Shown here: in pieces, positions 19,238-20,472 of the stretch
Numbering within the stretch: the first letter of the stretch is position 1
Layout: every line of letters starts with the position of its first letter
Source: Dictyostelium discoideum
Taxonomy: Eukaryota
Assembly: GCA_000004695.1 (NCBI GenBank)
Contig: CM000153.2
Location: 2,784,001 to 2,848,000 of the forward strand
DNA length: 64,000 nucleotides
Direction of reading: 5' to 3'
Program-made: the position numbers and the translations under genes
Notes under the pieces: model-generated
Database searches by the model: none
Seen by the model: the letters and a program-made list of their open reading frames with translations, nothing else
What the model was told of the DNA's origin: nothing

Positions 19238-20472
19238 TTATTCAGTATTACTATAATTTGAGATTGCACTGAATAAACTTTCAGCATTTGGAAAAGGTGA
19301 AACTATATCAACTTTAATATTATGTGTTTTTAAACAATTTTCTGTGGTTTTACCAATTGCTGCAACTTTGATTTTATTATTATTATTATTATTATTATTA
19401 TTATTATTATTATTATTATTATTATTATTATTATTATTATTATCATTATTATTATTATTATTATTATTAAAAATTGATGTTCTTGGTAGTGATAATGCTG
19501 ATAATTGATTATCAATTGTTTCCAATACAAAATCTACACCTGATGGACTAAAGAAAACTAACCAATATATTTCCATTTTATTTGATTGTAAAACCCTTTT
19601 AATTAAATTTAAAATATCATTAATACTATCATCTGAAGTTTGTGATTGATATGTTACTAATTCCTTTAATTGAATATTATTATTTTTTAAATATAATGGT
19701 AATTCTTCCCTTCTTTGATTACCACAAAAATATAAAAGTGCTTTATTATTATCATTATTATTATTCTCTTTATATTCATTATTATAATCTAAAGTGATCC
19801 TTTTTGCTAAATCTGTTGCATTTGATTCTACAACTATTACATTTTGAGATATCCATTTACCAAATACCTTTTTAAATAAATTACAACTAGTTTCTCCAAT
19901 TAAGTATATATGTTTAAATTTTAAAATATTATTGAAAAAAATTTGTGTTTCTCTATTATTATTATTATTATTATTATTATTATTATTATTATTATTATTA
20001 TTATTATTATTATTATTATTATTATTATTATTATTATTATTATTATTATTATTATTATTATTATTATTATTATTATTATTATTATTATTATTATTATTAT
20101 TATCATTATTATTATTATTGATGATGTTTTCTTTTTCAAAAGAGGATAAAAAAGTATCTATTGACTTTATAGAATTACTACTTGTTAATATAATACCAAA
20201 ATATTCAATATCACTATTACCATTGGGATCATATAAAAGTTTTAGATTATCATATTGATAATCAATTACTAAAACTTTTATGAATTCTGTGTTGTATTTA
20301 TCATTTTTAAAATTCTAAAAAAAAAAAAAAAAAAAAAAAAATTAGATATTAATAGATTAGATAATATTTTTTAAAATGAAGAATAATGAATACCTACTTG
20401 GTAATAAGGATCATCAATTTCATTGTCGTTATTTATTTTTGGTGATTTAAAAAACACTATATTTTTAATCAT
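19238..20472 (-). CDS. hemD: Uroporphyrinogen-III synthase. Model join(20472..20398,20314..19238); contains a ~50-Asn tract encoded by (ATT)50 at 19961-20110 and a second poly-N near the C-terminus.
   Basis: Exon 1 MIKNIVFFKSPKINNDNEIDDPYYQ (human MKVLLLKDAKEDDCGQDPY..). Exon 2 ..HIYLIGETSCNLFKK.. / ..ALLYFCGNQRREELPLYLK..VTYQS.. / EIYWLVFFSPSGVDFV...KIKVAAIGKTTENCL, matching the UROS signature (FSPSG...AIGPTT). I checked frame continuity mod 3 across the repeat on the plus-strand coordinates. Confidence 0.75.

Follow-up and report, generated by a model that had tools for sequence, protein, structure and literature searches.

A stretch of 64,000 nucleotides of Dictyostelium discoideum DNA (called here the window, always at its full length) contains a gene for the heme-biosynthesis enzyme uroporphyrinogen-III synthase (UROS) that includes two long runs of AAT codons. 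The locus raises the question of how a small enzyme came to carry two extended asparagine tracts, whether they belong to the mature protein, and whether they serve the enzyme or are simply accommodated by it. The explanation preferred here, to which a probability of about 0.9 is assigned, is that of a D. discoideum UROS with two coding AAT microsatellites that would have grown by slippage and are tolerated rather than functional.

Gene structure

The interval 19238-20472 holds an entire gene on the minus strand, running from the ATG (20472-20470) to the TAA stop codon (19240-19238). The original prediction had delimited the gene correctly from stop to start; the interval is not a single open reading frame, however, being split into two exons by a short intron:

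20398-20472, minus strand: UROS exon 1, 75 nt, residues 1-25
20315-20397, minus strand: intron, 83 nt, phase 0, GTAGGT...TTTTAG
19238-20314, minus strand: UROS exon 2, 1,077 nt, residues 26-383 and the TAA stop

Without splicing the frame closes after 33 codons, and with splicing it remains open for 383 codons. An intron occupies the same site in the genomes of Dictyostelium cf. discoideum and two D. citrinum, where it measures 91, 69 and 78 nt (the analysis counted none of these as divisible by 3, which holds for the 91-nt intron). The same donor and splice rule, when applied to the three orthologous loci, regenerated their deposited proteins exactly, which validates the gene model. Asparagine accounts for 122 of the 383 residues of the spliced product. 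The G+C content of the 64-kb window is 21.7%, and simple repeats are abundant; one of them, a (TATT)25.5 tetranucleotide microsatellite with 98% matches, occupies 19126-19227, 11 nt past the UROS stop codon and within the spacer of about 370 bp that separates UROS on the minus strand from the convergent rhodanese gene on the plus strand.

Membership in the UROS family

The spliced 383-aa product matches the Pfam profile HEM4 (PF02602) with 68.2 bits against a cut-off of 27.5 (E=7e-19), and with both tracts deleted in silico the match reaches 78.6 bits (E=5e-22). Human UROS (1jr2) aligns end to end over residues 20-290 (E=6.7e-11), and a profile search found 224 homologues, every one with PF02602. 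The most conserved blocks of the family are FSPSG and AIGKTT, which are located in the gene as follows:

19538-19555, minus strand: FFSPSG motif, residues 279-284, with F280, S281, P282 and S283 invariant in 100 UROS homologues
19343-19360, minus strand: AIGKTT motif, residues 344-349, with G346 and T349 invariant

All ten invariant positions are present (S70, L194, Y247, F280, S281, P282, S283, G346, T349 and P367), invariance having been counted over 100 aligned sequences, the window protein among them. Structures were modelled by AF2 for the exon-2 product (358 aa, without residues 1-25) and for a full-length orthologue with short tracts. In Foldseek comparisons with the PDB the 13 best matches were all UROS, for the exon-2 model and the orthologue model alike; the former matched 1jr2 at E=4e-11 (target TM-score 0.67) and the latter at E=2e-18 (target TM-score 0.76). 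The models and these matches thus agree on the two-domain α/β fold of UROS. Since the profile, homologue, invariant-residue and fold evidence is consistent, membership in the family is secure, and the identification made in the original prediction is borne out by the HEM4 profile, by human 1jr2 and by the fold matches. The predicted product is a UROS/HemD homologue and probably an active enzyme, also with tracts of this length. A literature search found nothing specific on Dictyostelium UROS.

The known UROS structures (human 1JR2, Thermus 3D8R, Pseudomonas 3RE1/4ES6) share with this protein the two-domain α/β fold and the conserved TS, GxxT, CGxxRR, FSPSG and IGxTT blocks. UROS homologues have about 240-300 amino acids, against 383 here.

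The asparagine tracts and their reading frame

Three asparagine-rich sites were found, the third of which was absent from the original prediction:

19955-20119, minus strand: tract 1, 165 nt, 55 codons, (AAT)5 GAT (AAT)49 or N5-D-N49, residues 91-145
19376-19468, minus strand: tract 2, 93 nt, 31 codons, (AAT)8 GAT (AAT)22 or N8-D-N22, residues 308-338
19745-19765, minus strand: site 3, N4-D-N2, residues 209-215, a third Asn-rich loop

Because the gene lies on the minus strand, ATT and ATC on the plus strand correspond to AAT (Asn) and GAT (Asp) on the coding strand. Read on the plus strand, tract 1 consists of (ATT)49 at 19955-20101, ATC at 20102-20104 and (ATT)5 at 20105-20119. A perfect (ATT)50 had been placed at 19961-20110; the long perfect run is real, but it comprises 49 units in codon register, at 19955-20101, and the range given was displaced by about 7 nt so as to take in the ATC. 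A stretch of 150 bp with perfect 3-nt periodicity extends from 19954 to 20103, and chance composition cannot produce a perfect triplet array of that size. The single ATC said to give Asp does interrupt tract 1. The AAT (Asn) register is likewise the only one open through the tracts, within the 358-codon exon-2 frame, although it belongs to the minus strand and not to the plus strand on which it had been assigned. The second run, announced as about 30 Asn between FSPSG and AIGKTT, is present with its 31 codons; it lies between FFSPSG and AIGKTT and ends 5 residues before the latter. Both tracts are exonic triplet microsatellites in Asn frame with perfect arrays of at least 20 units, namely (AAT)49 and (AAT)22.

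Each of the three sites has one GAT (Asp) near its 5′ end, at 20102-20104, 19442-19444 and 19751-19753; this may be coincidence or may reflect a common origin of the repeat unit.

Location of the tracts in the fold

Mean pLDDT was 81.9 for the exon-2 product and 91.4 for the short-tract orthologue. In the exon-2 model 273 of the 358 residues have a pLDDT of at least 70, and 186 of at least 90. Tract 1, with Asn at 54 of its 55 residues, is a low-confidence loop, with pLDDT below 50 at model residues 83-105, and 10-residue blocks of tract 2 have pLDDT of about 50-65. Whether a loop of 55 Asn would destabilise the fold or favour aggregation is beyond what AF2 can judge.

In the AlphaFold models all the Asn sites occupy helix-to-strand or helix-to-helix connections. 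In the orthologue model they are short turns of 3-4 residues at helix ends:

orthologue residues 91-94: Asn turn between helices 71-91 and 95-104
orthologue residues 157-162: Asn turn between helix 140-158 and strand 163-169
orthologue residues 254-256: Asn turn between helix 249-253 and strand 258-262

The conserved segments FTSS, IGETS, CGNQRR, FFSPSG and AIGKTT follow the opposite course in the same model, each starting at the end of a strand and running through a loop into the next helix. In doubly wound α/β domains the ligand-binding loops are found at the C-terminal edge of the sheet. Sites that come after helices are hence on the opposite face, and the models place the tracts in intradomain surface loops that face away from the conserved motifs. 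A structure prediction had been proposed in order to see whether the tracts fall in surface loops between the two domains; they do fall in loops, but within the domains and not between them. The same three segments vary in length throughout the family, with 22-57, 16-43 and 19-47 residues between fixed anchors in 96 other UROS sequences. The protein of the window has 94 residues from TS to VGxAT and 61 from FSPSG to IGxTT, where the maxima in the 96 homologues are 57 and 47.

Orthologues and age of the expansions

Relatives were sought by a protein search of a collection of 5.8 billion sequences. The closest proteins are those of D. cf. discoideum, with 301 aa and 96% identity over aligned positions, and of D. 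citrinum, with 301 and 312 aa. The collection had no entry for the exact 383-aa protein, and orthologues from D. purpureum, Polysphondylium or other dictyostelids were not among the matches of two protein searches. A metagenome scan for other alleles with a degenerate 30-mer adjoining tract 1 gave 0 matches. The orthologous loci are collinear with the window for the genes of a TPR protein, UROS, a rhodanese, a zf-CCCH protein and a TPT/EamA transporter, and repeat lengths were taken from a four-way MAFFT alignment of this syntenic 9-kb block.

The 55 codons of tract 1 correspond to (AAT)4 in the genomic DNA of D. cf. discoideum and to NNCKYDQ in D. citrinum. For the 31 codons of tract 2 the counterparts are (AAT)3 in the former and DN or NN in the latter. 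The coding indels between the window and D. cf. discoideum measure 153, 9 and 84 nt, all of them multiples of three, and the intron indel measures 8 nt. As the more distant D. citrinum is without both tracts, parsimony puts both expansions on the lineage of the window. From these alignments the tracts are recent lineage-specific expansions, dating from after the split from D. cf. discoideum at a dS of about 0.10. The lability of repeat length foreseen in the original prediction is evident in the comparison with D. cf. discoideum (55 against 4 codons and 31 against 3), and two D. citrinum assemblies are also unlike each other at site 3.

The site 3 segment (LA to CGxxRR) has 28 residues here, 25 in D. 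cf. discoideum and 27 or 38 in D. citrinum. The two D. citrinum assemblies (L002 and L003) read NNN-QNNNNNNNKK and NNNNQNENNNNNNNNNSNNNNNKK at this site, in proteins of 301 and 312 aa. Provided that the names of both assemblies are right, the orthologue is polymorphic in length within one species.

Outside the tracts dN/dS is 0.15 at a dS of 0.10 in the comparison with D. cf. discoideum. Of the changes on the branch of the window alone, 5 are synonymous and 3 nonsynonymous, against about 1:4 expected under neutrality. These ratios indicate that the rest of the UROS protein is under purifying selection. The tracts are thus recent additions to a gene that is still maintained, and would be dispensable.

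Positions 1-1657 of the D. cf. discoideum locus (L001) contain LTR-retroelement fragments (RT_RNaseH, integrase) upstream of the TPR gene. Collinearity with the window ends there at L001 4095, and D. citrinum is collinear up to window position 26012, which suggests a lineage-specific insertion or rearrangement in D. cf. discoideum.

Triplet repeats in the window and in the genome

The UROS tracts have abundant company. In the window 12 perfect AAT-class tracts reach 10 units or more, 954 bp in total, the longest having 50 and 46 units. Two further long coding runs of asparagine were located:

53216-53353, minus strand: N46 coding run in a 796-codon open frame, with a further N14 at 53571-53612
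29483-29590, plus strand: N36 coding run in a 1,053-codon open frame, with a further N10

Neither of the proteins that carry N46 and N36 had a match in Pfam. A poly-Thr (ACA)22 tract is also present in the window. None of the triplet tracts in the syntenic 9-kb block has a constant length across the four genomes, and the differences go in both directions. The tract in the TPT/EamA transporter ORF (13418-13444) is (AAT)9 here and about (AAT)30 in D. cf. discoideum, and that of the TPR gene region (21231-21263) is (AAT)11 here and about (AAT)38-39 there. The latter reads as Leu in the long ORF and is therefore probably intronic.

On the scale of the genome, perfect triplet repeats with 20 or more units number 3,064 in D. 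discoideum, and Asn or Gln tracts with 20 or more residues number more than 2,966 (Scala et al. 2012, PMC3460934). Wild clones differ greatly in their coding repeats, at least as much as in matched non-coding ones (PMC3460934). In mutation accumulation indels arise at a far higher rate than base substitutions, and many of them are 3n indels (PMC7466956). The tolerance of D. discoideum towards Q/N-rich proteins was reviewed in 2022 (PMC9234386). Within-species length polymorphism at the UROS locus would be expected from the published wild-clone data (PMC3460934).

Such tracts being already documented thousands of times in D. discoideum, those of UROS are an ordinary case of a described genome-wide phenomenon. 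The original prediction had singled the gene out as a natural test case for the tolerance of poly-Asn in folded proteins; that special standing does not hold, since D. discoideum has about 3,000 long coding tracts of Asn or Gln, which were reported in 2012 to be polymorphic and to be retained in cDNA (PMC3460934). The discovery value is accordingly small, since poly-Asn tracts, their hypervariability and their tolerance are all established for D. discoideum. The locus is nevertheless a tidy illustration: over a synonymous divergence of about 10% one site lengthened from N4 to N55 and the other from N3 to N31, and the host is a small, structurally understood two-domain enzyme in which both can be assigned to loops remote from the active-site face. 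The gene could also be a substrate for assaying, by simple hemD complementation, how long a homopolymer loop a folded enzyme tolerates, although thousands of other genes give the same opportunity.

Probable origin and tolerance of the tracts

In the preferred explanation, replication slippage would have expanded short Asn seeds of about 3-4 codons after the split from D. cf. discoideum. The long tracts would then loop out of the protein, with the two-domain enzyme folding around them and purifying selection persisting on the remainder. Tolerance rather than function is argued by three properties: the tracts are hydrophilic, they are located in connections whose length varies throughout the family, and in the predicted fold they are opposite the conserved substrate-binding loops of each Rossmann-like domain. 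Such a placement would also account for an enzyme that folds around its tracts and stays under purifying selection. The tracts are presumably retained in mRNA and protein, and published genome-wide data would argue that they are neutral.

Selection, splicing or decay

An alternative that has to be weighed is that the poly-Asn loops are kept by selection, for condition-dependent assembly, as a solubility switch, or for localisation or dosage tuning. The frame is always Asn, never Ile or stop, and both long tracts are of high purity. According to the 2022 review (PMC9234386) the repeats encode Asn in preference to what the other two frames would give, and mutations within them are often synonymous. 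A 2026 report (PMC13093961) describes stress-induced solubility changes in predicted prion-like proteins of D. discoideum. However, purging of the stop (TAA) and hydrophobic (ATA) frames accounts for the bias towards the Asn frame just as well. The closest relative has only 4 and 3 Asn at the two sites and D. citrinum essentially none, with the enzyme conserved throughout. Neighbouring tracts, whether coding or not, vary as freely and in both directions, and the equal variability of coding and matched non-coding repeats is found genome-wide (PMC3460934). Maintenance by selection is hence considered improbable. A specific form of it, in which UROS is a conditionally assembling enzyme whose loops reversibly lower its solubility on heat or starvation and so throttle heme synthesis, with repeat length as a heritable tuning knob, is regarded as very improbable; if true, it would make the lineage-specific expansion adaptive rather than neutral.

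Removal of the tracts as AT-rich introns, which would leave a mature enzyme of ordinary length, is also very doubtful. The tracts are 100% A+T save for one G each, as Dictyostelium introns are, and around tract 1 a hypothetical intron from GT (20165) to AG (19953) would take out 213 nt and keep the frame. The original prediction had named GT..AG boundaries flanking the repeat as the sign of such removal, but GT is absent within both tracts and at their borders. The closest candidate donors lie 46 nt upstream of tract 1 (GTCAAT) and 60 nt upstream of tract 2 (GTATTG); both are poor in comparison with the real GTAGGT, and their use would remove 15-20 codons that are conserved in orthologues and aligned to HEM4, for example SIDTFLSSFEKENII. 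Around tract 2, GT 19528 with either downstream AG breaks the frame, and the in-frame options from GT 19539 take out part of the conserved FSPSGV block together with KIK or KIKVA, the lead-in of the strand that precedes AIGKTT. The annotated coding sequences of the three other genomes include short Asn runs at these sites, and ESTs of D. discoideum contain repeats of this kind, which are not spliced out (PMC3460934). Splicing of the tracts was rejected on these grounds, there being no bordering GT and the alternative sites either deleting conserved residues or shifting the frame.

A loss of enzyme function through the insertions, with the gene now in decay in this lineage and heme taken from bacterial prey, is extremely unlikely and was rejected: 86 residues have been added to a two-domain enzyme of 297 and only 5 separate tract 2 from the AIGKTT motif, but the ORF and intron are intact, as is every invariant residue of the family, the insertions are in family-wide variable loops away from the motif face, and the nonsynonymous load is low (dN/dS 0.15, with the 5 synonymous and 3 nonsynonymous branch changes far under the neutral ratio).

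Comparison with known systems

A UROS with slippage-grown and tolerated tracts is readily compared with the coding AAT/CAA microsatellites of D. discoideum (PMC3460934; Eichinger et al. 2005, as cited in PMC9234386), with which the UROS repeats share perfect AAT arrays of at least 20 units in Asn frame. They are the same also in being sited where the chain loops out and in lengths that differ sharply between close relatives. There is no difference in kind, tract 1 with its 49 units being the longest in the window and the next having 46. The host is a small metabolic enzyme, whereas such tracts are reported to be over-represented in kinases and transcription factors (PMC9234386).

The Asn-rich insertions in housekeeping proteins of Plasmodium falciparum (PMC3749963) likewise occur in an AT-rich genome and in conserved hosts, with function undemonstrated. 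P. falciparum is, however, of a different lineage from Dictyostelium. The Asn tracts of Plasmodium are usually less pure at the DNA level, with mixed AAT/AAC and interruptions. The DNA repeat of the Dictyostelium UROS is perfect, which points to recent slippage.

The prion-like domains of yeast Sup35 and Ure2 have the same extreme Asn content, which in UROS extends over 55 residues. They differ in that the UROS tract is an internal loop of a folded enzyme and not a terminal disordered domain, and in that it is homopolymeric rather than a mixture of Q/N/G/Y/S. D. discoideum has been reported to resist aggregation of Q/N-rich proteins (PMC9234386).

Other features of the window

The most G+C-rich part of the window (30-33%) is occupied by an ORF with a reverse transcriptase-type Pfam domain and is accompanied by tRNA genes:

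57414-60593, plus strand: ORF of 1,059 aa with an RVT_1 domain (E=2e-36)
57024-57096, plus strand: tRNA-Asp(GTC) gene
61702-61774, minus strand: second tRNA-Asp(GTC) gene

The ORF starts about 320 nt downstream of the first tRNA-Asp gene, an arrangement that we take to resemble that of the tRNA-gene-targeted retroelements (TRE) of Dictyostelium.
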